DNA of 64,000 nucleotides from an uncultured Brevinematales bacterium (GCA_964475465.1 CAYYXA010000047.1:20466-84465); one strand, 5' to 3'. Positions 1,905 through 20,659 are shown, numbered from the stretch's first letter. Numbers and translations are program-made. Notes: generated by a model not told the origin, from the letters alone.

Positions 1905-3308
1905 TTACTTTCTTGATAAAAATAATGTTCCAGGTGTGAATTTTATTTCTTCCGAGTAGTCACTTTTGGTTCCGTCTTTTCTTACACTTCTCATTGATAT
2001 GTAGTAAGTTTCATTTAATTTTAAGCCTTTCAAGGTGTAGCTATAGACAGGGTAAAATTTCGTAGGTTTTTTCACTTTTATAGGAGATGGGCCGTTAAGA
2101 GCATCATTGCCAAAGTATTTGTCTTTTTCTGTTCCGTAGTATATTTCATAATAGATTATTTCGTCATCTAAGTCGTTTTGCCATGAGATCGTTACTTCTC
2201 CCTGGTTTAGTGATTTCATATCTACTATTTGTGGGGTGAGAGGTTTTATGTTAGTTTCTGTAATTAATGAGACTTTGAAGGATTTTATTTCTCCTTCTTT
2301 TTTAAGTGGTATGAGTTTTAATTGGATGTATCTGCCATTTATTCCTTCACCTTGGAATAGTTGCCATCCTATTTTGTTGTTGATTAGATCTATGATGTTG
2401 TTGCTACCTCTAGCGTAAACGAGGAATTCACCGATTCTTTTGTCTGTCTTTATGTAAAAGAGTTTTGATGAGTAGTTTTTTGTATCTATTATTCTTGATA
2501 CTATTTCGTTTGGTATTTCTTGGATAGGTTTTGTTGAGATTAGCCTATAGGGTACGAATGCGAAATCATCAATGTATCCTACAAAGTCTGAACCTATATC
2601 AAGGATGAAATTGTCATTTCCTATTTCCATTTTAGTCCCTTCGACTTTAGCAAGGCCTATTATTTCGTTGTTGAGATAGAGGAGGATCTTTGAGTTTAAC
2701 AAGTCAAGGACTATAGATATTTCGCTCCATCTGTTTAGTTTTACTTTGTCATGTGATAGTATGAGTATGTCCTTTTTGTCACCAGTTTCTGAGTTAATAA
2801 AAATATTTTTTATTCTCACGTTAACTGTTTCATTTCTTATTGCTGCACTTATTTCTTTGTCTTCTTCAAAGTTCAAAGATTTTAGCTTGAATAGATACGA
2901 ACCATTATCTAACCTTGTTGGATAAAATGATATGTGTATACTGATTACACTACCTAAGGCTTTTGAGGTAAAGAAATCCTTGGGTAGTACAATTGAAATA
3001 CCATGATACTTTGTGAAAACTTTAGCTGAATGATTACCACTGAATGGTTTTGGGGATTTCTCAAAACTAAATTTTGAAAACTTGTAGTTATTAATAATAT
3101 TTTCATCTTCGAAGTTTATGAATAAGCCGCTACTACTACCTGGCTCGTTTTCAATATGCGAAGTGGACATCATCCCAAGTACTTTTTGTTTGGTGTAGGG
3201 TTTTGGAATATTAAAGTCTCTTTCGGAAAGTTCAATTATGTCACCGAGTGCAATCGAGTATGATGCTAGAGATAGCAGGATTACGAATAATAAACTTTTG
3301 ATTTTCAC
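1905..3308 (-). CDS. Secreted protein with a signal peptide, a predicted central LamG/ConA-like jelly-roll region and a C-terminal fibronectin type III domain.
   Basis: There is an N-terminal hydrophobic signal sequence. The C-terminus reads as FN3 (EVTISWQND...YYEIYYG...YYISMRSVRKDGTKSDYSEEIKFTP). It lies 64 bp downstream of the beta-barrel gene on the same strand. Confidence 0.5.
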   Translation of the reverse strand: MKIKSLLFVILLSLASYSIALGDIIELSERDFNIPKPYTKQKVLGMMSTSHIENEPGSSSGLFINFEDENIINNYKFSKFSFEKSPKPFSGNHSAKVFTKYHGISIVLPKDFFTSKALGSVISIHISFYPTRLDNGSYLFKLKSLNFEEDKEISAAIRNETVNVRIKNIFINSETGDKKDILILSHDKVKLNRWSEISIVLDLLNSKILLYLNNEIIGLAKVEGTKMEIGNDNFILDIGSDFVGYIDDFAFVPYRLISTKPIQEIPNEIVSRIIDTKNYSSKLFYIKTDKRIGEFLVYARGSNNIIDLINNKIGWQLFQGEGINGRYIQLKLIPLKKEGEIKSFKVSLITETNIKPLTPQIVDMKSLNQGEVTISWQNDLDDEIIYYEIYYGTEKDKYFGNDALNGPSPIKVKKPTKFYPVYSYTLKGLKLNETYYISMRSVRKDGTKSDYSEEIKFTPGTLFLSRK

Positions 3309-3372: not shown

Positions 3373-4761
3373 CTAAAATACCCATTCTATACTGAATTTT
3401 GATGATACTAAATCAAAGGAGTTGTTTCCACTTATTATCCACGGAAGTCCACCATTTATGAATACATTGTTAATGAAGCTATTACTTATAACCCAATCAA
3501 GAGATAATCCCTTTATTGGCTTCACTGAAAATCCTATCGTAAAGCTGCTTATTAGTGATGAGGAGGACGATATATCCACTGTTGCTTGTCCATCTTTACC
3601 GTTCTTTGTGTAAGAATAGGAAATTTCTAGAGGATTACCGATAACACCTGTTCTGAATGTTAGCCAATCAGTAAAAGGTATTTCAGCGGATACAAAAATA
3701 GGTACTCTTGATTCTGTTGTGTATCCTTTATAATCATTATCGTTTGTGAATACTCCATTGGCAATACCTCTTGCGTATATTTCCCTACTGTAAGTTGTAG
3801 AATAGTACCCAGTACCTAAGAGAATAAGTATGCCGTTTAGTATGTGTGTATTGTAGGATGCTAGTATGGTATAAGATACTACACCGTAGTTGTTTGTAAT
3901 TTGTGTATCTTCGTCACCGGTTTCTTCGAAGTTGCCATTACCGTCCGTGTCTCTCCTTGTTATTTGTAATGAAGGTAATTGGTAGTTAAAGAAGTTTACA
4001 AATCCTTTTACGTATGTCTTATCTCCATCTATCTTTAGCTTTAATGGCACATCGAGTGAAAAGTTGAATGATGGTAGTAATGTATGATGCCTGTAGTTTA
4101 CGTAATTCTCAATGTTAGCGTCTAGGTTGCTTACAGAATTTTCAGCTGATGGTAGGTATACTTTTAATGTTGGCGATAAGTTAATGAATCCTAGATTTAT
4201 ACTGCTACCGAGTATGATTTTTATTTGTGATATTGATTCTTTGGTAATTGTTTCGGTTCTACTAACCTCATTCGAGGTTATTGTAATCGAGAAGTCTCCA
4301 GCGTAACCTATTCCTAAGTAAGGTTTCAGGAATGTTATTGCTAATATATTATTTATTCCAAGAAGTACATCGATTCTGTCTCTGGAGTAATCTGCTAGTG
4401 TAAATGATGATAATGGTGTGGTACTTGATTGTAAAAAACCACCTGGAACACCAGTTGCAATATTAGGTATGTATGATAGTTCTTGATACGGGTAGTTAAT
4501 GATTACTCCCAAATTGAGTTGTTCTATTGGTGTTGGTATGGTATACTTTGCTAGTGCATAAAAACTGGTAGGTGATGTAATGGGTTCAAAAACAACGAAG
4601 TTGCTTGTAGAATTCACATACCATGGTTCCAGCACCATGCTAAAGTAGTCATCGATTAGTGTTGATGGCACTGCTAGTCCGTTTATCCTCGATTCTGAGG
4701 CAAACACAGCAGAATTGAATACTATCATTAGTATCGCTAAAATAAAAGCTAAAATTTTCAT
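3373..4761 (-). CDS. Putative outer-membrane (toga-associated) beta-barrel protein.
   Basis: It has a signal peptide (MKILAFILAILMIVFNSAVFA) and a strong GGAGG RBS. The composition is beta-rich with alternating aromatic and polar residues and abundant Y/T/N/S. The C-terminal residue is Phe (..SIEWVF), as in OMP barrels. Confidence 0.45.
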   Translation of the reverse strand: MKILAFILAILMIVFNSAVFASESRINGLAVPSTLIDDYFSMVLEPWYVNSTSNFVVFEPITSPTSFYALAKYTIPTPIEQLNLGVIINYPYQELSYIPNIATGVPGGFLQSSTTPLSSFTLADYSRDRIDVLLGINNILAITFLKPYLGIGYAGDFSITITSNEVSRTETITKESISQIKIILGSSINLGFINLSPTLKVYLPSAENSVSNLDANIENYVNYRHHTLLPSFNFSLDVPLKLKIDGDKTYVKGFVNFFNYQLPSLQITRRDTDGNGNFEETGDEDTQITNNYGVVSYTILASYNTHILNGILILLGTGYYSTTYSREIYARGIANGVFTNDNDYKGYTTESRVPIFVSAEIPFTDWLTFRTGVIGNPLEISYSYTKNGKDGQATVDISSSSSLISSFTIGFSVKPIKGLSLDWVISNSFINNVFINGGLPWIISGNNSFDLVSSKFSIEWVF

Positions 4762-9743: not shown

Positions 9744-10661
9744 ATGTATAGTTTCCTCGAGCCTATTAGGAAGCTTGATTTTGTAAAGCATAGGTTTTAC
9801 TTTATTGTGTTATCGGTAGTAATAGTTGCGGTGGGTATTGTTTTGTTTTTCGTAAAAGGTGGTTTTAAACAGAGCATTGATTTTGCTGGTGGTACAAGGT
9901 TGGAGGTTAAAATAGAAGATGGTGATGCAACAATAGATGTTGTTAGGAGGGTTATATCCTCAACTGGTGTAACGAAGGATGTCACTTATGTGGGTGCCCC
10001 TTCAGAAAGGATATTCTTGATAAGTATCGGAGTAAAAGAAAATTACGAGCAAGATGTAGAAAAAGTGAAGCAAGCTTTAGTTAAAGAATTTGGAGACAAA
10101 GTTATTTTGAGAGGTGAGAACACTGTTGGCCCTAGGTTGAGTCAGGAATTTTTTAGAAATGCTATGCTTTTGTCATTTATAGTTGGCCTTTTAATACTAG
10201 GATACATTTGGGTTAGGTTTGATTTGGTATTTGGTATTGGTGCTATTGTTGCATTGATACATGACTTGCTAATTGTTCTTACCGCGGTTTTAATATTTGA
10301 TATCGAGATGGATATAAGTATTATTGCTGCTATATTGACGATTCTTGGATACTCTGTTACGGACACGGTTGTTGTCTATGATAGAATAAGGGAAAACCTT
10401 GAGCTATCCAAGAGTGCGGAGATAGAGTATATTGTTAATACTAGCATAAGGCAAGTTATAGTTAGGTCTATATTGACATCCTTTACGACACTTCTTATAG
10501 TTGTTTCGTTTATAATCTGGGGGCCAGAAAACTTGAAAGGTTTTGCTGCATCTCTCTTGGTAGGTATAATAAGTGGTACTTATTCGTCTTTGTTTATTGC
10601 TTCTCCTGTTGTAATAGAACTTGAGAAGAGGAGATTGTTAGCTAAGGAGAAGGCTATATAA
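9744..10661 (+). CDS. secF: Protein translocase subunit SecF.
   Basis: It has a GGAGGG RBS, lies immediately after secD, and has the SecF membrane domain signature. Confidence 0.9.
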   Translation: MYSFLEPIRKLDFVKHRFYFIVLSVVIVAVGIVLFFVKGGFKQSIDFAGGTRLEVKIEDGDATIDVVRRVISSTGVTKDVTYVGAPSERIFLISIGVKENYEQDVEKVKQALVKEFGDKVILRGENTVGPRLSQEFFRNAMLLSFIVGLLILGYIWVRFDLVFGIGAIVALIHDLLIVLTAVLIFDIEMDISIIAAILTILGYSVTDTVVVYDRIRENLELSKSAEIEYIVNTSIRQVIVRSILTSFTTLLIVVSFIIWGPENLKGFAASLLVGIISGTYSSLFIASPVVIELEKRRLLAKEKAI

Positions 10662-11386
10662 TGGCTGTTCTCAGAGCTGAGAACATATATAAAAGGTATG
10701 GCAAGAGGTATGTTGTTAATGGTATTTCGCTTCTACTAAATAAGGGGGAAATTGTTGGGTTTTTGGGGCCAAACGGTGCTGGTAAGACTACAACATTTTA
10801 TATAATTGCTGGCATCGTTGATCCTGATGGTGGTAATGTTTTCTTTGATGATATTAACATCACTAGGTGGCCCATATACAAGCGTGCTAATCTAGGTATA
10901 GGTTATTTGCCACAGGAGCATTCGATATTTAGGAAACTGACAGTTGAGCAAAACGTTATGGCTGTTCTGGAGTTAAAAGGATTTTATGGAAAGGAGCTGG
11001 TGAGGAGGACTTTAGAGGTTCTCGAATATATGGGGTTAATGCACGTTAGGAAAACCGTTGCTGCGGCTCTGTCAGGAGGTGAAAAAAGAAGATTGGAGGT
11101 TGCTAGAATGATAGCGCTTGAACCTAATTTTCTACTTCTTGATGAACCTTTTACAGGGGTTGATCCTATAGCCATAAACGATATACAGAAAATTGTAAAG
11201 ATGTTGAAAGAAGACAAAGGCATCGGGGTTTTGATAACTGACCACAACGTTAGAGAGACTTTGAAGATAGTTGATAGAGCTTACATAATACATCATGGGC
11301 AGATCCTTGTAGAAGGTGATGCTGATACACTGATAAATGATCCAAAAGCGAAGGAAATATATTTAGGCCACGATTTCGAAATTTAG
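10661..11386 (+). CDS. lptB: LptB-like ABC transporter ATP-binding protein (lipopolysaccharide export ATPase family).
   Basis: Walker A (GPNGAGKTTTF), the ABC signature (LSGGEKRRLE) and Walker B (LLLDEPF) are present. The LptB-type C-terminus (KEIYLGHDFEI) and the LGIGYLPQE motif are also present. Confidence 0.8.
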   Translation: MAVLRAENIYKRYGKRYVVNGISLLLNKGEIVGFLGPNGAGKTTTFYIIAGIVDPDGGNVFFDDINITRWPIYKRANLGIGYLPQEHSIFRKLTVEQNVMAVLELKGFYGKELVRRTLEVLEYMGLMHVRKTVAAALSGGEKRRLEVARMIALEPNFLLLDEPFTGVDPIAINDIQKIVKMLKEDKGIGVLITDHNVRETLKIVDRAYIIHHGQILVEGDADTLINDPKAKEIYLGHDFEI

Positions 11387-12911: not shown

Positions 12912-13106
12912 ATGCCTAAAAAGAATAAACCTAATACATCTGCTCAGAAGAGGTTTAAGGTTACAGGTACCGGTAAGATTTTGAGAAGACAGGAAGGAAT
13001 GAGACACTTGCTTTCTGATAAATCAAGAAGAAGAAAAAGAAGACTTAAGAAAGAAGTAGAAGTTGTAGGAGCTAGGTATAGAAAAATTCAGCAGATGATT
13101 GGATGA
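12912..13106 (+). CDS. rpmI: 50S ribosomal protein L35.
   Basis: It begins MPKKNK...KRFKVTGTGKILRRQEGMRHLL...KRRLK. The true ATG is at 12912; the ORF track starts at a GTG at 12906. Confidence 0.85.
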   Translation: MPKKNKPNTSAQKRFKVTGTGKILRRQEGMRHLLSDKSRRRKRRLKKEVEVVGARYRKIQQMIG

Positions 13107-14347
13107 TTTACATTTCACCTTATGAAAGAAGAAAAGTGATTTTAGGAGATCTCGTTGAGGAGAGATCTCCTTCTGTTGTGTTCCTAAAGAAAGCAAGTTC
13201 AGGTTACGTTCCATCTTCTAGTGTTTCTTTCATTAGTTACTTAGATCTTAAGGTTTTTGATAAATGTGATGAAAAGTTCAGTTTGTTTTTTCTTGATCCT
13301 GAGGTAGTTGATAATCTAGGGAACGATTACATTGATTTAATTAAAAGAATCTCAAGAAACAGAAATTTAGATTCTGTGTTTATAGTTTCTAGGTCACTAT
13401 CTGTGAATGGAGTTATTAACTTTCTTAGGAAGACTGATTTGAGCAAGTTTGTTAAGGAAAAGAAGATAGTGATTGATGTGGCTAGATTACCCAGAATTTC
13501 TGTACTCATGACAGAGAAGAAGTTTTATGAGCTTGTTCGCTTGCTGAATTTACTTAGTAAGAGAGGTTCAAAGAGGGTAGTTGTTGTGGCTACAAGAAAT
13601 AGTTTAGAGTACTTGGAGAGAAGGTTAAGGAATATTGGAATAAAGGCGAAAGCTTATCTTTCGTCGTATGATGAAAGAATTAGAAGGAGGGTTTTGATCA
13701 ATTTTCGTTTGGGTAGGTATGAGGTTTTGCTAGTTTCTAGAGGCTTTTTTAAGGCTTATAAGGGGATTTTGAATCTTGGGGTTGTAGTTTATTTTTCTCC
13801 TCCTGTTACTTTTTTAGATTTTTTTAGGGATTTGTCTAATTTCTCTTCTGAGGTTGGTTTTGATGGTGAAATTTTTGTTTTGTTCTCGGAGCGTGATGAG
13901 AGAGTTGTTTCTAGGATAATTAGGAGACACCAGAATATGGATAAACATTGTTTGCGTTTTGTTAACTTTCTGTTTTCTAAGGATAAGGTTGGGGCTATTA
14001 AAGATTATTTTTTAGATGGATACATTCGTGCTAAGTTGCTTTACGGTTTCGATGTAAATTTTTCGATTGATGGTTATTTTTATCGCGATGACTACGGTAT
14101 TGCGGACGCTCGTAATGTAAAATTTGTGGAAGTTGATGATCTGAAAGGTGGCTATTGGGAGATGAGAGATATAGTTAGTTTGCTTTTGGGATTAGATGAA
14201 GGGATGAGGTTTTATAGGGGGTTTGGTAGTATGAGGGGGCGAAGAAGTGATGAAGTTAAGGAAATTATTTATTCGGCTTTGAACGAAGGATTTTTGGATG
14301 TTAGGTTTTTCTTGAGAGATGGAGTTTTAGTTAAGAAGTTTTTTTGA
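13103..14347 (+). CDS. Hypothetical cytoplasmic protein that retains only a degenerate helicase C-terminal (RecA-like domain 2) fold. It is predicted to be catalytically inactive.
   Basis: The ATGA overlaps the rpmI stop. Residues from about 140 to 290 resemble DEAD-box motifs IV-V (RVVVVATRNSLEYLERRLRNIGIKAKAYLSSYDERIRRRVLINFRLGRYEVLLVSRGFFKAYKGI). There is no Walker A, no DEAD box and no HRIGRTGR. Confidence 0.5.
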   Translation: MIYISPYERRKVILGDLVEERSPSVVFLKKASSGYVPSSSVSFISYLDLKVFDKCDEKFSLFFLDPEVVDNLGNDYIDLIKRISRNRNLDSVFIVSRSLSVNGVINFLRKTDLSKFVKEKKIVIDVARLPRISVLMTEKKFYELVRLLNLLSKRGSKRVVVVATRNSLEYLERRLRNIGIKAKAYLSSYDERIRRRVLINFRLGRYEVLLVSRGFFKAYKGILNLGVVVYFSPPVTFLDFFRDLSNFSSEVGFDGEIFVLFSERDERVVSRIIRRHQNMDKHCLRFVNFLFSKDKVGAIKDYFLDGYIRAKLLYGFDVNFSIDGYFYRDDYGIADARNVKFVEVDDLKGGYWEMRDIVSLLLGLDEGMRFYRGFGSMRGRRSDEVKEIIYSALNEGFLDVRFFLRDGVLVKKFF

Positions 14348-14415: not shown

Positions 14416-16035
14416 ATGGATAATGTGAACAGGAGGATAAGGCGACAGAAAGCGATAAAGGAGTTTTTGACAGCTTTAGCTTTTTTATCACCTAACTTTT
14501 TCGGATTCTTGCTCATAACAGCGTTTCCTATAGTTGCAGTTTTCCTTTTGGCTCTTACGGAATGGGATGGTATTAGCTATGCTTCTAGGGCTGAGGGTGA
14601 GGTTCAATTTGTTCCTGTCAAAACTCTAGATAAGGATGTTTTTATACCTAAGGGTACTGAGGTGAAAGGTGAGGTTATAGTTGAGAAGAGATTTACGGGT
14701 AGAATGAACAAGGAGCTTGTTGGGTTTAGTGAGATAAAGCTGCCGAAAGTGGGTGATGATTTTGTAATTCCCGTTAGTGTTAAAGGAGGTAAGGAAGCTT
14801 TTACTTATAGGTTTCCTGAAAATTCTGAATTTATAGTTGAGATTGCTCTTTACATTACTAATAAAGTGACGAATAATGGGACTATTTCCGAAGTTGTAGA
14901 AATTACTAATGCTAAGGTTAGGTTTGTCAGTACTTCAGAGTTTGAGGTTACTACTGGAACTTCAATTGAGATTGTTGGTAAGATAAAGGAAGTTGTTGAA
15001 GGAATATATCCGGAGGGAGCCTTTGTGCCTGTTGAAAACATTACTGTTAGGGGAATTCACAAAACCGTTGTGAAGTTTGATGGCCTAACTACGGAGAGTG
15101 TTACTATTCCAGCTGGTACTGAGCCTATAGATATAGGTAAGATTGGTATGACTATTGAAGGATATTTTGCCAAAGTTATTTCGATTAAGCCGGGCGAAGA
15201 GTTTAACTTGCCTGAAGGTAAGGTTTTGGCTATTGAGGGATTTCCGGAGGTTAAGGCTGTTGTTAGCAAAGCTTTTATAAACGGTAAAACAGGCATAAAG
15301 TTTGTGGGTCTTGATAACTTCAAAAAATTGTTTACCAGGGATAAAGATTTCTGGAGATATTTTATAAACACGTTGATATTTATGTTAGAGGTTCCGCTAG
15401 GTATGGCTTTTGCCATAATTCTAGCTTTGGCGTTGAATCAGAAGTTGAAGGGAATAACTGTGTTTAGAGTTCTTTATTTCTTGCCTTACATATCAAACTT
15501 GGTTGCTGTTGCCATGTTGTGGAGATGGATATATAACGACAATGGGCTCCTTAATGACTTCTTGAAGTCTTTAGGTGTTATTAATCCGCCTAGCTGGCTT
15601 GGTGATGGGAATTGGGCTAAAGTTGCTATAATTGTCATGGATATATGGAAGAATGTTGGTTATACAATGCTAGTTTATTTGGCTTCTTTGCAGCAAATAC
15701 CTTCTTATTTGTACGAGGCAGCTGAGATTGATGGAGCTAACGGACTTCAGCAATTTGCTTATATCACGTGGCCAATGTTAGGTCCTACAAACTTCTTCTT
15801 GATCATTATCGGTATAATAAATGGTTTCCAGGCGTTTGGTTCTCAGTATGTTTTGACTGGTGGTGGTCCTGCTGGTGCTACCAAGACTATCGTTTACTAC
15901 ATATATAACAATGCTTTCCAGTGGTTCAAGATGGGATATGCTGCCGCTCTCTCCGTGTTCTTGTTCTTCGTGATGATGATATTCACTATAATTCAGTGGA
16001 AGATGGGGCAAGAGTCCACCACTTCCTCTTGGTAA
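14416..16035 (+). CDS. Sugar-type (CUT1/MalF-like) ABC transporter permease with an insert of about 270 aa between TM1 and the conserved GLDNF motif.
   Basis: A GGGGGA RBS precedes the ATG at 14416 (the ORF track starts at a TTG at 14344). The C-terminal half carries the permease EAA motif (EAAEIDGANGLQQFAYITWPMLGP). The large hydrophilic beta-rich insert lies between TM1 and FVGLDNFKKLF. Confidence 0.75.
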   Translation: MDNVNRRIRRQKAIKEFLTALAFLSPNFFGFLLITAFPIVAVFLLALTEWDGISYASRAEGEVQFVPVKTLDKDVFIPKGTEVKGEVIVEKRFTGRMNKELVGFSEIKLPKVGDDFVIPVSVKGGKEAFTYRFPENSEFIVEIALYITNKVTNNGTISEVVEITNAKVRFVSTSEFEVTTGTSIEIVGKIKEVVEGIYPEGAFVPVENITVRGIHKTVVKFDGLTTESVTIPAGTEPIDIGKIGMTIEGYFAKVISIKPGEEFNLPEGKVLAIEGFPEVKAVVSKAFINGKTGIKFVGLDNFKKLFTRDKDFWRYFINTLIFMLEVPLGMAFAIILALALNQKLKGITVFRVLYFLPYISNLVAVAMLWRWIYNDNGLLNDFLKSLGVINPPSWLGDGNWAKVAIIVMDIWKNVGYTMLVYLASLQQIPSYLYEAAEIDGANGLQQFAYITWPMLGPTNFFLIIIGIINGFQAFGSQYVLTGGGPAGATKTIVYYIYNNAFQWFKMGYAAALSVFLFFVMMIFTIIQWKMGQESTTSSW

Positions 16036-16053: not shown

Positions 16054-17004
16054 ATGGCTAAGACAAAAGAACAATTTTATGGTCAAAGTCTTGTTGAAGA
16101 GAGAAAAAGGAAAGAGATGATAAGTAATTTGATTGCTTACATAATTTTGTCTATTGGTGCTTTTACTATGGTTATACCTTTCCTTTGGACTATATCTACT
16201 GCTTTGAAGGATCCTTCGGATGTTTACGATGGTAGGTTTATTCCCCAAAGATTTTCTTACATCTACGTTGACAAAGACGGAAAGTTTGTTCCTGGCAGTG
16301 CATACAGAGAAGGTTATAAGGAAGTTAGATCATGGTGGGCTAACTTTGTTAAGGCTTGGATAGCAGTTCCGTTTGATAAGTATTATAGGAACAGCTTGAT
16401 AGTTGCTACGATAACAACTTTGGGGCAGCTTGTTACTTGTACTCTTGCGGCTTACGCTTTTGCTAGGTTGAGATGGTTCGGCAGAGATGCCGTTTTCTTA
16501 TTGTACCTGGGTACGCTCATGGTGCCGTTCACCGTTACAATGATACCTGTTTACATACTATTCAAATTGCTTGGGTTGGTGAACACCCTCGTAGCTGTCA
16601 TATTACCTGCTCTATTTTCTGCTTTCGGTACTTTCCTACTTAGGCAATTCTTTGTGTCCATACCGTATGATCTAGAGGAAGCTGCTTTTATAGATGGAGC
16701 TAATAGACTTCAAATACTTTGGCATGTGATATTACCTTTGTCCAAGGGTGCTCTTGCTACACTAGGTACATTCACATTCCTATTCCAATGGAATGATTTC
16801 TTGTGGCCATTGGTCGTTTTGAACTCTGATGAGGTTAAAACTATACCGATTGGATTGACAGCATTCCAGTCTGCTTATGGCTCTCAGTGGGAACTTGTTA
16901 TGGCTGCTTCTTTAATAGCGTTGATTCCTGTTATATTAATATACCTATTTAACCAAAGGTTCTTCACAGAAAGCATCATGCTTACAGGTTTCGGCGGAAG
17001 GTAA
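16054..17004 (+). CDS. Sugar-type (MalG-like) ABC transporter permease.
   Basis: It has a GGAGG RBS, six TM helices and the EAA motif (EEAAFIDGANRLQILWHVILPL). Confidence 0.85.
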   Translation: MAKTKEQFYGQSLVEERKRKEMISNLIAYIILSIGAFTMVIPFLWTISTALKDPSDVYDGRFIPQRFSYIYVDKDGKFVPGSAYREGYKEVRSWWANFVKAWIAVPFDKYYRNSLIVATITTLGQLVTCTLAAYAFARLRWFGRDAVFLLYLGTLMVPFTVTMIPVYILFKLLGLVNTLVAVILPALFSAFGTFLLRQFFVSIPYDLEEAAFIDGANRLQILWHVILPLSKGALATLGTFTFLFQWNDFLWPLVVLNSDEVKTIPIGLTAFQSAYGSQWELVMAASLIALIPVILIYLFNQRFFTESIMLTGFGGR

Positions 17005-17008
17005 AGTT

Positions 17009-17031
17009 AAAAGGGGTTTTACCCCTTTTTT
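17009..17031. terminator. Rho-independent terminator (AAAAGGGGT-tt-ACCCCTTTTTT).
   Basis: It is a perfect GC-containing hairpin flanked by an A-run and a T-run, 5 nt after the permease stop. Confidence 0.65.
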
Positions 17032-18155: not shown

Positions 18156-18544
18156 CCTTAGTTTAATAATAAACCAAAGATAAGTTTTATTCAAGTTCTG
18201 GGATATTCTATTAAGAGTTTCAATGGGAAGATATAGTTATTCTCTACGTTTCGTGCTCTTTTTGTTTAAAACACTGTGTATAAAAACTATGTAACTACAA
18301 GAGTAGTTATTTCCAATTGAAGAGATTTTCTTAGGTGATCATTTTGAAAAAGTTAATTAAGTTTTGCAGATTTTTTGTTTTGTGTTGTATATTTTTATGG
18401 ATTTGGAGGTCGAGTATGATAGACTTCGGTAGGCTCATTAAGGAAAGTTTGTCTTTTAGCAAATCTGAGAGTTTACCGAAGTTTCAGGAATTAAAAAACG
18501 AGGTTAGTGAAGACATGGACTCTTACTATAAGGAGGTGGTGTAT

Positions 18545-20659
18545 ATGGGTAGAGGAAGTAAAATTTTGGTAGTTGTATCTTTGGCGTTAGTGGTGATAGG
18601 AGCTTTTCTATTTTTGTTATGGGACAAGTTGCCTTTTATATCTTCCTCAGAGCCAATTGCTAAAGTTCAAACTTCTACGGAAAAGGTTATTCAGCTGAAG
18701 CAGCCACAAAGTATAAATGCTAAGGTGATAATGGCTTACGGTGATGTCAAGGTAGTTAATTTGGGAGAGATTTCTGATGTAGATGTTGGTTATGTTCTCA
18801 GGGATGGCGATGTGATTCAGACGGGCCCAGACTCGGAGTGTGAAGTCCAAATTTCTGATAGTGGTATTTTGAGAATAACAGAAAATTCTTCTGTTTCATT
18901 ATCCGAGATAATTTTTGCTGCAAGTAAAAAGACTGATAGAGAGGCTTTTGTTATGTCTGGATCGGTAAAAGCAGCTTTCAAAAAATTGCCAAAGGGCGAA
19001 ACTTTTAAAGTTAAAACGGAAACAGCAATTGCTGCTGTAAGGGGTACTAAGTTTTCTGTTAGCGTTGAGGAGCAAGGTAAGACTAGGTTAGTTGTTACTG
19101 AAGGCAAAGTTATTTTTGCTCCTAGGATATCAAAACTTGAGGAGGTGAAAAATGTGACAGAGGATGAAAAAGTTAGAGAGAGGATTTCGGAAATAGAATT
19201 GAGTGGTGGTATTCTTGTGGATGGTGGTAAAAGGGCAGAGATCACTCCAAAAGCAAAGTTTGAGGCTGAGAAGAGTGTTAGCAATGTGATTGTGAAGATG
19301 GAGGATGCTATTGTCAAAGGAAAAGTAGATGATGAGGTAATTTCCAAAGTTGGAAAAGCTGTTGCTTCACTAGGAAAGAAGGATTTAGTCAAAAAGAGTA
19401 GAGCTGAGACTCGTGAAATCGATGAAATTGAAAATCAAGTTTCGAAAGACTTTGTGGGGGATGCTACTGTTAGGATTACCGTTGTACCTAGTGGTAAAGA
19501 AGTTGAAGGTGCTGAGGTTTATGTTGATGGGATTTTCATGGGTAAGATTCCTTTGTCTAAGATGTTGGTTTGGGGTAAGAAGTATGAGCTTGTGGTCAGG
19601 AAAAATGAAGAAACTATCTACTCATACGAGTTTGAAGCAAGTAAGGATATGAAAATAGAAATTAAGCCTAAGAAGGAGGGTAAGGAGCTATCTTCGATGC
19701 CTTTAGCCCAAAAGAAAGAAGAGATTGAGTTTATCTCCAAAAATATTGATTTTGTACCAGCGATTTCGTATGGTAAGGTTGGATTTTACTCAGGAGATTA
19801 TATAGCTATTCCTTCTCACTCTGGTGTCGCTTTTGTTTATGGTAACAAAGTGAAAACAATACCAACTAAAGAATTTATCTCTATGGGGTTTGGAAATGAT
19901 TTGATAGCTGTTATTTCAAGGGGTGAGGATGAAAAGAGATTTGTTAGAGTGTTTTCATTTGATGGTAATTTAGTTGCTGAATTTGATATAAGTGAGGTGT
20001 CTAAGGGATTACTTTCGGTAGGTGGAATTGCTGTTGTTTCGAAGAAAGTTATAGTTCCTATCCTGGATGGTGTGGGTATTATTGATATACCTTCTGGGAA
20101 TATAAGAGTTGTTAATCTGGGTAATACTTTCTCAGATATTGGTTCGCTAGGTGATTCTGCTGTAGTTGTTAATGAGATAGGAGAAGTTTACAAAGTTGGT
20201 TTGGATGGTTCTGCCTCTAAGATAGGGCAACTTAGTTCAACTTCTGTTAGAAGAGGCGTTGTTTTGACTCATTCGGACGGAAGTATATATGTTTTGCATA
20301 AAGGTAGGTTGTACAGTTTTGGTTCTAAAAACTATGTTAGCAATTTGGGAGTTTCTGATGCTTTTGGAGCTATATATGGTAACGAGATTGTTCTAAATGC
20401 TGGTACTAAGGTAATAGTTGTTGACAGAGATTCTGGTAAAGTTCTTGTTTCGGTAGACACTGTTGGTAAAGTTAACGGAGTACCTTATCTGAAAGACAAT
20501 TATCTAGTTATTACTGCCTCTGATGGTCTTCATATTTACAATCTATCTACTGGTAAGGAAGAAAAGTCGTACGATATAGTTGGCTATGCGTCACTGATCA
20601 AAAATGGTAACGTGTACGTAATAGGAAAGTCAAAGATGTTCATAATACCGATGAAGTAA
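18545..20659 (+). CDS. Membrane-anchored FecR-domain protein with a predicted PEGA-like domain and a C-terminal beta-rich (propeller-like) region.
   Basis: A GGAGGTG RBS precedes the ATG at 18545. There is an N-terminal TM helix, a FecR signature (VLRDGDVIQTG...AAVRGTKFSV) and a PEGA-like segment (ITVVPSGKEVEGAEVYVDGIFMGKIP). Confidence 0.65.
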   Translation: MGRGSKILVVVSLALVVIGAFLFLLWDKLPFISSSEPIAKVQTSTEKVIQLKQPQSINAKVIMAYGDVKVVNLGEISDVDVGYVLRDGDVIQTGPDSECEVQISDSGILRITENSSVSLSEIIFAASKKTDREAFVMSGSVKAAFKKLPKGETFKVKTETAIAAVRGTKFSVSVEEQGKTRLVVTEGKVIFAPRISKLEEVKNVTEDEKVRERISEIELSGGILVDGGKRAEITPKAKFEAEKSVSNVIVKMEDAIVKGKVDDEVISKVGKAVASLGKKDLVKKSRAETREIDEIENQVSKDFVGDATVRITVVPSGKEVEGAEVYVDGIFMGKIPLSKMLVWGKKYELVVRKNEETIYSYEFEASKDMKIEIKPKKEGKELSSMPLAQKKEEIEFISKNIDFVPAISYGKVGFYSGDYIAIPSHSGVAFVYGNKVKTIPTKEFISMGFGNDLIAVISRGEDEKRFVRVFSFDGNLVAEFDISEVSKGLLSVGGIAVVSKKVIVPILDGVGIIDIPSGNIRVVNLGNTFSDIGSLGDSAVVVNEIGEVYKVGLDGSASKIGQLSSTSVRRGVVLTHSDGSIYVLHKGRLYSFGSKNYVSNLGVSDAFGAIYGNEIVLNAGTKVIVVDRDSGKVLVSVDTVGKVNGVPYLKDNYLVITASDGLHIYNLSTGKEEKSYDIVGYASLIKNGNVYVIGKSKMFIIPMK

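Follow-up and report, generated by a model that had tools for sequence, protein, structure and literature searches.

What does a large external domain do on a sugar-importer permease whose gene lies beside neither a binding-protein gene nor a cognate ATPase gene? The question arises from a gene at 14416..16035 (+ strand) of a 64,000-nucleotide stretch of DNA from an uncultured Brevinematales bacterium (GCA_964475465.1, CAYYXA010000047.1:20466-84465), which we call the window throughout (G+C 36%). The gene encodes a MalF/UgpA-type (CUT1) permease of an ATP-binding cassette (ABC) importer, 539 aa long including the domain in question. An initial annotation of this locus had suggested that the domain is a tethered substrate-capturing or carbohydrate-binding module (CBM) that substitutes for a separate solute-binding protein (SBP). 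Our analysis points instead to a domain at the position of the P2 loop of Escherichia coli MalF, built of modules that resemble part of a phage baseplate protein and possibly serving to dock an SBP encoded elsewhere.

We assign the gene product, from its sequence, to CUT1 (TC 3.A.1.1) as a MalF/UgpA-type permease of a carbohydrate ABC importer. Pfam BPD_transp_1 (PF00528) matches residues 329-527 only (52.6 bits against a cutoff of 26.4; E 6e-14). A family profile searched against the PDB gave MalF, AlgM1 and SugA as its best matches, with E. coli MalF as the top solved structure (2r6g_F, E 1e-37), and the best NCBIfam models were UgpA and MalF, both under their equivalog cutoffs. The MalF-type call made initially is thus borne out by all three sources. 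An open reading frame (ORF) lister extends the gene to a TTG at 14344. We accepted the ATG at 14416 as the start because a GGGGGA ribosome-binding site lies just 5' of it, the neighbouring upstream gene ends at 14347, and homologs with 86-94% identity are also 539 aa long.

By translation, hydropathy and AlphaFold2, residues 1-52 (14416..14571, +) form a K/R-rich cytoplasmic N-terminus and the first transmembrane helix (TM1), ending in LTEWDG; W50 and D51 are nearly invariant in the family alignment. The hydropathy peak of TM1 falls at residues 29-47 (53-71 when counted from the TTG at 14344), and AlphaFold2 places a helix at residues 2-46. The conserved CUT1 membrane core, delimited by motifs, identity and dN/dS, comprises residues 297-539 (15304..16032, +). 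It contains the motif VGLDNFKKLF (residues 297-306), TM2-TM6, with TM2 beginning near residue 315, and the EAA coupling loop LYEAAEIDGANGLQQFAYITWPMLGP (residues 432-457; 15709-15786). The GLDNF-KLF motif and the EAA loop had both been reported in the initial annotation, and both were found. Short orthologs from other phyla share 57-61% overall identity with this core.

Between TM1 and the core lies the extracytoplasmic insert (residues 53-292; 14572..15291, +), which is all-beta and ~240 aa long. Alignment with insert-free orthologs places it after the LTEWDG that ends TM1 and before the motif G-x-x-G-I-x-F-V-G-x-x-N-F. When the family profile is aligned with E. coli MalF, profile positions 254-533 correspond to MalF residues 217-512, and VGLDNF falls opposite MalF TTGWKNF, where P2 ends on its C-terminal side; this puts the insert at the position of the MalF P2 loop (residues 91-276). 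It should lie outside the cytoplasm, because the K/R-rich N-terminus fits an N-in topology and the insert is in the first external loop. It is hydrophilic and rich in V/E/I/G/K/T, and AlphaFold2 models it as all-beta, with pLDDT of 80-94 in the full-length model and a mean of 87 for the insert alone. A hydrophilic, beta-rich extracytoplasmic domain after TM1 had been proposed at the outset, and the all-beta model and the external-loop position agree with it. Its extent had been overestimated, at ~270 aa spanning residues 60-330, given the ~240 aa that we find and the start of TM2 near residue 315. Matches of the full-length profile to PDB entries for PomB and a flagellar motor protein (E ~3e-4) were rejected, being absent with an insert-only profile; we attribute these PomB/MotB-like matches to the TM1 segment.

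The insert appears to consist of two tandem modules, each with an "IPxGT" motif. With approximate bounds, module A covers residues ~57-183 (14584..14964, +) and contains DVFIPKGTEV, and module B covers residues ~184-292 (14965..15291, +) and contains SVTIPAGTEP and FNLPEGKVL. We accepted this division mainly because phrog_6 ("baseplate wedge subunit") matches both halves at one region of its profile: it covers the module A region in P0033 (residues 53-140) and P0031, and the module B region in P0041 (residues 202-261), where the same profile region is used as in the module A matches. Alignment of the N-half of the insert against its C-half (hhalign E 1.7e-4, probability 50%) weakly supports an origin by internal duplication. 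Family members vary in this part of the protein. P0032, P0038 and P0046 (601-614 aa) carry an extra ~50-60-aa segment in the second module (alignment columns ~400-440), and P0033 (410 aa) has a single module only; such variation shows that the ectodomain is modular and continues to change.

The likeness to baseplate proteins came from several kinds of search. Among 21 family inserts tested against Pfam and PHROG, phrog_6 matched four (best E 3e-6). Baseplate_J (PF04865) appeared below threshold in two of the 21, at best with E 0.0038 and under the 21.1-bit cutoff, and Gp6_2nd (PF21515, gp6 domain II) was likewise sub-threshold in 2/21; three family members carry precomputed PF04865 annotations. 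A hidden Markov model (HMM) of the insert, searched against 1.84 billion representative proteins, returned nine clusters at E <= 1e-10, all of them the same permease family. Outside that family it gave only four weak matches at E <= 1e-3 (E 3e-6 to 5e-4): two Baseplate_J proteins (P0125 and P0126), both at insert-profile positions 173-253, and two large repeat proteins with Big_9/cadherin or Calx-beta. By hhalign, insert residues 146-226 aligned with P0126 (probability 87%, E 4e-6) and insert residues 3-74 with P0125 (probability 44%). The fold comparison was scored as a match to solved baseplate wedge proteins, and the 60 structure matches listed included no SBP, no MalF and nothing annotated as a CBM. 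This weak but consistent similarity suggests that the ectodomain is a tandem pair of relatives of the Baseplate_J/gp6 wedge domain found in contractile phage tails. The likeness is limited to one small beta-barrel module and does not extend to whole wedge proteins. Literature searches on the insert, on Brevinematales transporters and on Baseplate_J in permeases found nothing relevant and no description of the insert.

The membrane cores of P0033, P0041 and others also match PHROG families, phrog_20211 and phrog_1577 (function unknown), with E 1e-10 to 1e-25, so phage- or prophage-derived collections do contain ABC permease genes of this kind.

We then asked where the insert occurs and how it evolves. 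The nearest named homologs of the permease come from Brevinematia/Brevinematales metagenome-assembled genomes (Spirochaetota), one contig of which (L013, "Spirochaetes bacterium RSWP19") is 97% identical; an affiliation with Thermotogae, assumed at first, does not hold. When one genome per species was scanned, permeases with the insert turned up in Brevinematales only, including the complete genome CP053071.1 (L025). Brevinema andersonii, other Spirochaetia, Elusimicrobiota, Omnitrophota, Firestonebacteria and further groups have short MalF proteins of ~300 aa. When the cores were placed in a neighbour-joining tree, the proteins with the insert grouped as a single clade nested among the short-MalF pairs, a pattern consistent with a single acquisition of the insert.

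The insert diverges much faster than the membrane core. Closer relatives (P0020-P0028) share 42-47% identity with the insert in the window and 89-93% with its core; for deeper Brevinematales lineages, the values are 14-19% and 57-66%. Comparison of the window with L077 and L076 gave dN/dS of 0.14-0.17 for the insert (240 codons; dS 0.5-1.1) and 0.015-0.027 for the membrane core. Trp is entirely absent from the insert, and the family alignment shows no conserved aromatic or polar residue in it; its invariant positions lie only at its two junctions. We take the insert to be functional because of this dN/dS and because it is retained across lineages whose cores are only 57-66% identical. We conclude that it is a selected, folded domain with a fast-changing surface and no conserved pocket signature.

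The permease gene belongs to a small unit. A MalG/UgpE-type partner permease of 316 aa (16054..17004, +), absent from the initial annotation, begins 18 nt after the MalF stop and was identified by Pfam and NCBIfam (BPD_transp_1 E 1.6e-16; UgpE E 5e-43 and MalG E 3e-24, both under the NCBIfam cutoffs). A terminator-like hairpin, AAAAGGGGTTTTACCCCTTTTT followed by a T-rich tail (17009..17030, +; consensus match only), lies after malG. From the close spacing and the hairpin we predict a bicistronic unit, in which the permease gene is co-transcribed with its MalG-like partner only. The MalF plus MalG-type pairing is kept in all related loci.

No binding protein was found near this unit. Pfam detected no SBP_bac_1/8 protein and no MalK/MsmK-type ATPase in 30 window ORFs. 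We also built a CUT1-SBP HMM from the SBPs of related loci and called ORFs in 73 such loci. This HMM gave nothing at E < 1 in the 64-kb window, and neither an SBP nor a CUT1 ATPase gene was found in ~12 distinct Brevinematales loci with flanks of up to 10 kb per side. The claim that no cognate SBP lies nearby is therefore upheld in both settings. These searches for SBPs and ATPases covered the window and the flanks, and so establish an absence of linkage rather than of the proteins. The 414-aa ORF upstream of the permease gene was considered as a binding protein and rejected, being helicase-C-like. Elsewhere in the window, two adjacent ORFs of ~465 aa each, 3373-4761 (-) and 1905-3308 (-), do not match the SBP HMM; the former has no Pfam family and the latter a C-terminal fn3 only.

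The earlier statement that no ABC ATPase is nearby holds for a cognate one; taken literally it fails, since an LptB gene (10661-11386, +; 241 aa; TIGR04406, 341 bits, cutoff 240) lies 3 kb upstream of the permease gene. Pfam and a search of all window ORFs of at least 150 aa for Walker A/LSGGQ motifs identified it as the only ABC ATPase, and as an LptB it is no CUT1 partner. CUT1 ATPases are often shared and encoded away from the permease genes. LptB-type ATPases also occur at L002 13681-14448 (-), L014 18914-19681 (-) and L017 18922-19689 (-). Between loci the LptB genes are 58-60% identical. In several Brevinematales lineages of deep divergence their distance to the MalFG pair is 1-7 kb, and they encode the sole ABC ATPases seen near Brevinematales MalFG pairs without their own. 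The closeness of LptB to MalFG is probably residual synteny.

If the insert replaced a binding protein, it should accompany loss of the adjacent SBP gene, as had been proposed. This is not what we found. The nearest short-MalF orthologs (L006, L008, L022-L031, L034-L036), whose insert-free MalF is ~305 aa, have no adjacent SBP either. An SBP gene adjoins the pair in L032, L033 and L065 and lies 5 kb off in L063; among more distant relatives (Pseudothermotoga, Paenibacillus and others) it is adjacent in almost every case. Gene contexts annotated by Pfam agree with this SBP-HMM picture. The unlinked pairs of L028, L031 and L035 have minimal loops in both subunits, and the genes beside unlinked pairs are unrelated housekeeping genes. 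Because unlinked SBP and ATPase genes are common across this multi-phylum clade with or without the insert, the missing linkage is no special consequence of the insert. Weak HMM matches upstream of unlinked pairs were considered as divergent SBPs and rejected; they are AdoHcyase, SAM synthetase and a Macro domain.

This clade (L006, L008, L020-L031, L034-L036 and the Brevinematales loci) consists of MalFG pairs, two genes per unit, with unusually conserved MalF cores (55-65% identity across phyla). MalG is ~350 aa in many members and reaches 612 aa in L049 and 678 aa in L021; in these long forms its first external loop is ~400 aa. Enlarged MalF or MalG proteins are found in the Spirochaetia relatives L021 (1559-3313, 3338-5374), L049 (609-2447) and P0087. 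In the 584-aa MalF of the L021 type, the enlargement is an N-terminal extension comprising an extra TM helix and a long charged coiled-coil-like stretch. The large regions of L021 MalF and MalG were considered as homologs of the Brevinematales insert and rejected, being unrelated on comparison, and the other large external loops of the clade likewise show no relation to it. L008 alone has a 1062-aa alpha-amylase/pullulanase beside the pair.

We favour, at about an even chance and by analogy with E. coli MalF, the explanation that the ectodomain is a P2-like docking platform for an SBP encoded elsewhere, working with an unlinked MsmK-type ATPase. The ectodomain would protrude into the periplasm and act as P2 does, as a protein-protein platform that captures and holds the binding protein. 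The latter would have its gene at another place in the genome and would probably be a lipoprotein, and energy for transport would come from a shared MsmK/MalK-type ATPase that is likewise encoded elsewhere. A baseplate-type beta-barrel probably gave rise to the module in a single recruitment, in an ancestor of those Brevinematales that have the insert. Rapid divergence with no conserved site is more in keeping with a surface for docking a partner than with a conserved sugar site. Several results weigh against this explanation. Neither an SBP nor a CUT1 ATPase of the host was found in the window and related-locus flanks, and when an SBP from L032, the nearest SBP-linked sister, was used as a probe, none of the 120 matches listed was labelled Brevinematales. 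Unlinked SBP genes across many phyla are unusual for CUT1, and the clade could be working differently. For the baseplate origin, the insert of the window itself has no match to a Pfam or PHROG family, and Foldseek with the insert model gave nothing at E <= 1e-3 against the PDB and BFVD; no more than a few baseplate entries attained a probability of 0.99-1.0, at TM ~0.3.

The ectodomain might also itself capture substrate, an oligosaccharide or glycan, and pass it to the pore, which would make this a binding-protein-independent type I importer. The lack of an SBP within 10 kb in the Brevinematales loci and in the window would suit such a role, as would purifying selection on the ectodomain, and the large external loops of other unlinked pairs (MalG of ~350 aa or of 612-678 aa) can be read as repeated compensation. 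Yet a sugar-binding site is hard to reconcile with an insert that lacks Trp and conserved aromatic or polar residues and whose identity falls to ~15% while the core stays at ~62%. Moreover, L028, L031 and L035 are unlinked with minimal loops, so such an ectodomain is not required, and known fused cases use a true SBP domain (Bdellovibrio bacteriovorus MalE-MalF, PMC6906923; P0244). We therefore consider direct substrate capture quite unlikely. The original proposal of a tethered SBP or CBM in place of an SBP is not supported, given the lack of co-variation with SBP loss, the residue pattern and the docking of MalE by MalF P2; no known permease subfamily with such an insert and a separate SBP came to light, so the idea is weakened only. 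A broader version, in which Brevinematales MalFG, and perhaps the whole unlinked clade with its variable giant loops, needs no classical SBP and the baseplate-derived beta-barrel is a built-in receptor or gate, seems to us very unlikely.

A docking role need not involve an SBP. The ectodomain may bind another partner or be a structural element, such as a periplasmic spacer or a pore-gating lid, a reading that we regard as unlikely without dismissing it. Candidate partners would be a glycoside hydrolase of the periplasm or outer membrane, a channel in the outer membrane, peptidoglycan or a second copy of the ectodomain, and such docking might couple uptake to extracellular polymer breakdown. 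A surface that diverges quickly under purifying selection would be expected here too; the amylase gene that follows one short ortholog pair (L008) and the extra segment in the inserts of P0032, P0038 and P0046 point the same way. Against it, no conserved neighbour gene hints at such a partner, the neighbours being unrelated housekeeping genes, and the data indicate no specific one. Finally, the insert could be a tolerated, essentially functionless fragment captured from a prophage into a permissive loop. The loop of relatives does tolerate very different insertions, and phage baseplate proteins include relatives of the module. This reading is highly improbable in view of the dN/dS of the insert over its 240 codons at dS 0.5-1.1, and of its in-frame, confidently folded state across Brevinematales lineages whose cores are ~40% different.

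The window neighbours of the permease gene are rpmI, a helicase-like gene, malG and trpC, and a Pfam scan of window ORFs found no phage, tail or baseplate gene cluster around it. The upstream helicase-C-like cytoplasmic protein (13103-14347, +; 414 aa) has a weak Helicase_C/RecQ-like match and lacks the N-terminal helicase domain. The ATG of this gene overlaps the stop codon of a short basic ORF (~12912-13106, +), MPKKNKPNTSAQKRFKVTGTGKILRR..., which looks like ribosomal protein L35 (rpmI), an assignment made by eye with no tool result. Downstream, a 774-aa protein (18335-20659, +) combines a FecR domain with weak similarity to PQQ_2/beta-propellers; in NCBIfam it matches the leptospiral LipL45, Lsa33 and Lsa19 models, all under cutoffs. 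This FecR/LipL45-like lipoprotein was considered as a conserved partner and rejected, lying beside MalFG only in the closest relative.

Flagellar genes adjoin the MalFG pair of other Brevinematales in two different arrangements. In one subclade fliD, which encodes the flagellar cap, lies immediately before the pair (L002 7819-9864, L004 7578-9773, L014 7420-9471, L017 7510-9564, L019 6339-8420). In another, fliQ (Bac_export_3) and a STAS gene come after the pair (L001 12553-12816, L074 2742-3014).

Baseplate_J, gp6 and Mu gp47 wedge proteins (PF04865, PF21515, phrog_6), which belong to contractile tails and injection systems, share the "IPxGT" strand motif with the ectodomain. The insert differs from them in having one small beta-barrel module, present twice, with the other baseplate domains absent, and in being part of a membrane permease without tail or baseplate gene context. 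It appears that a baseplate-type module can serve beyond tails and injection systems. The core is most closely related (57-61%) to the unlinked short-MalF pairs of Spirochaetia, Elusimicrobiota, Firestonebacteria and others, which have the same two-gene layout, no MalF insert and, in many cases, a longer MalG (~350 aa). This unlinked MalFG clade is a place to test type I import without a classical binding protein.

Permeases with a fused binding domain include GlnPQ and OpuA. In type I importers with a fused substrate-binding domain such as B. bacteriovorus MalE-MalF (PMC6906923), as here, an external domain sits on the permease and no separate SBP gene adjoins it. However, the fused domains have alpha/beta periplasmic-binding-protein folds that match SBP Pfam families, as in P0244, a fusion of SBP_bac (PF13416/PF01547) with BPD_transp_1 (PF00528), whereas the Brevinematales insert is all-beta and, when tested, matched no SBP family or periplasmic-binding-protein fold.

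The nearest functional counterpart would be E. coli MalF (MalFGK2-MalE; PDB 2R6G, 3FH6). According to a review that calls it unique (PMC6906923), the P2 of this protein is an immunoglobulin-like domain extending ~3 nm into the periplasm; its Kd for MalE is 7-22 uM, and the two remain bound throughout the transport cycle. The two permeases belong to the same family, each with a MalG-type partner, and each carries a large all-beta ectodomain at the same point, after the equivalent of core TM1 and before G-x-x-NF. They differ in that P2 is ~185 aa and immunoglobulin-like while the Brevinematales ectodomain is ~240 aa with two Baseplate_J-like modules; in that E. coli MalF has two extra N-terminal TM helices and the Brevinematales permease the 6-TM core only; and in that malE and malK belong to the mal genes of E. 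coli but neither is linked in Brevinematales. The insert is not a member of the P2 family, because similarity to P2 was tested and is absent in both sequence and fold. We infer that the permease works like MalF in bearing an ectodomain at the P2 position, with SBP binding suggested by analogy. The function of the ectodomain is thus most likely one already known, and the curious features are the baseplate-like module and the clade-wide missing SBP linkage. If this ordinary explanation holds, the value lies mainly in better annotation and in a candidate for structural work. Large ectodomains at the P2 position have hitherto been regarded as peculiar to the maltose system of enterobacteria. Here the same loop appears to have been filled independently by a different, unrelated module whose closest relatives are in phage baseplates, which supports the loop as a general insertion hot spot for docking domains and adds to E. 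coli MalF a second, confidently modelled example in which the role of such ectodomains can be tested.

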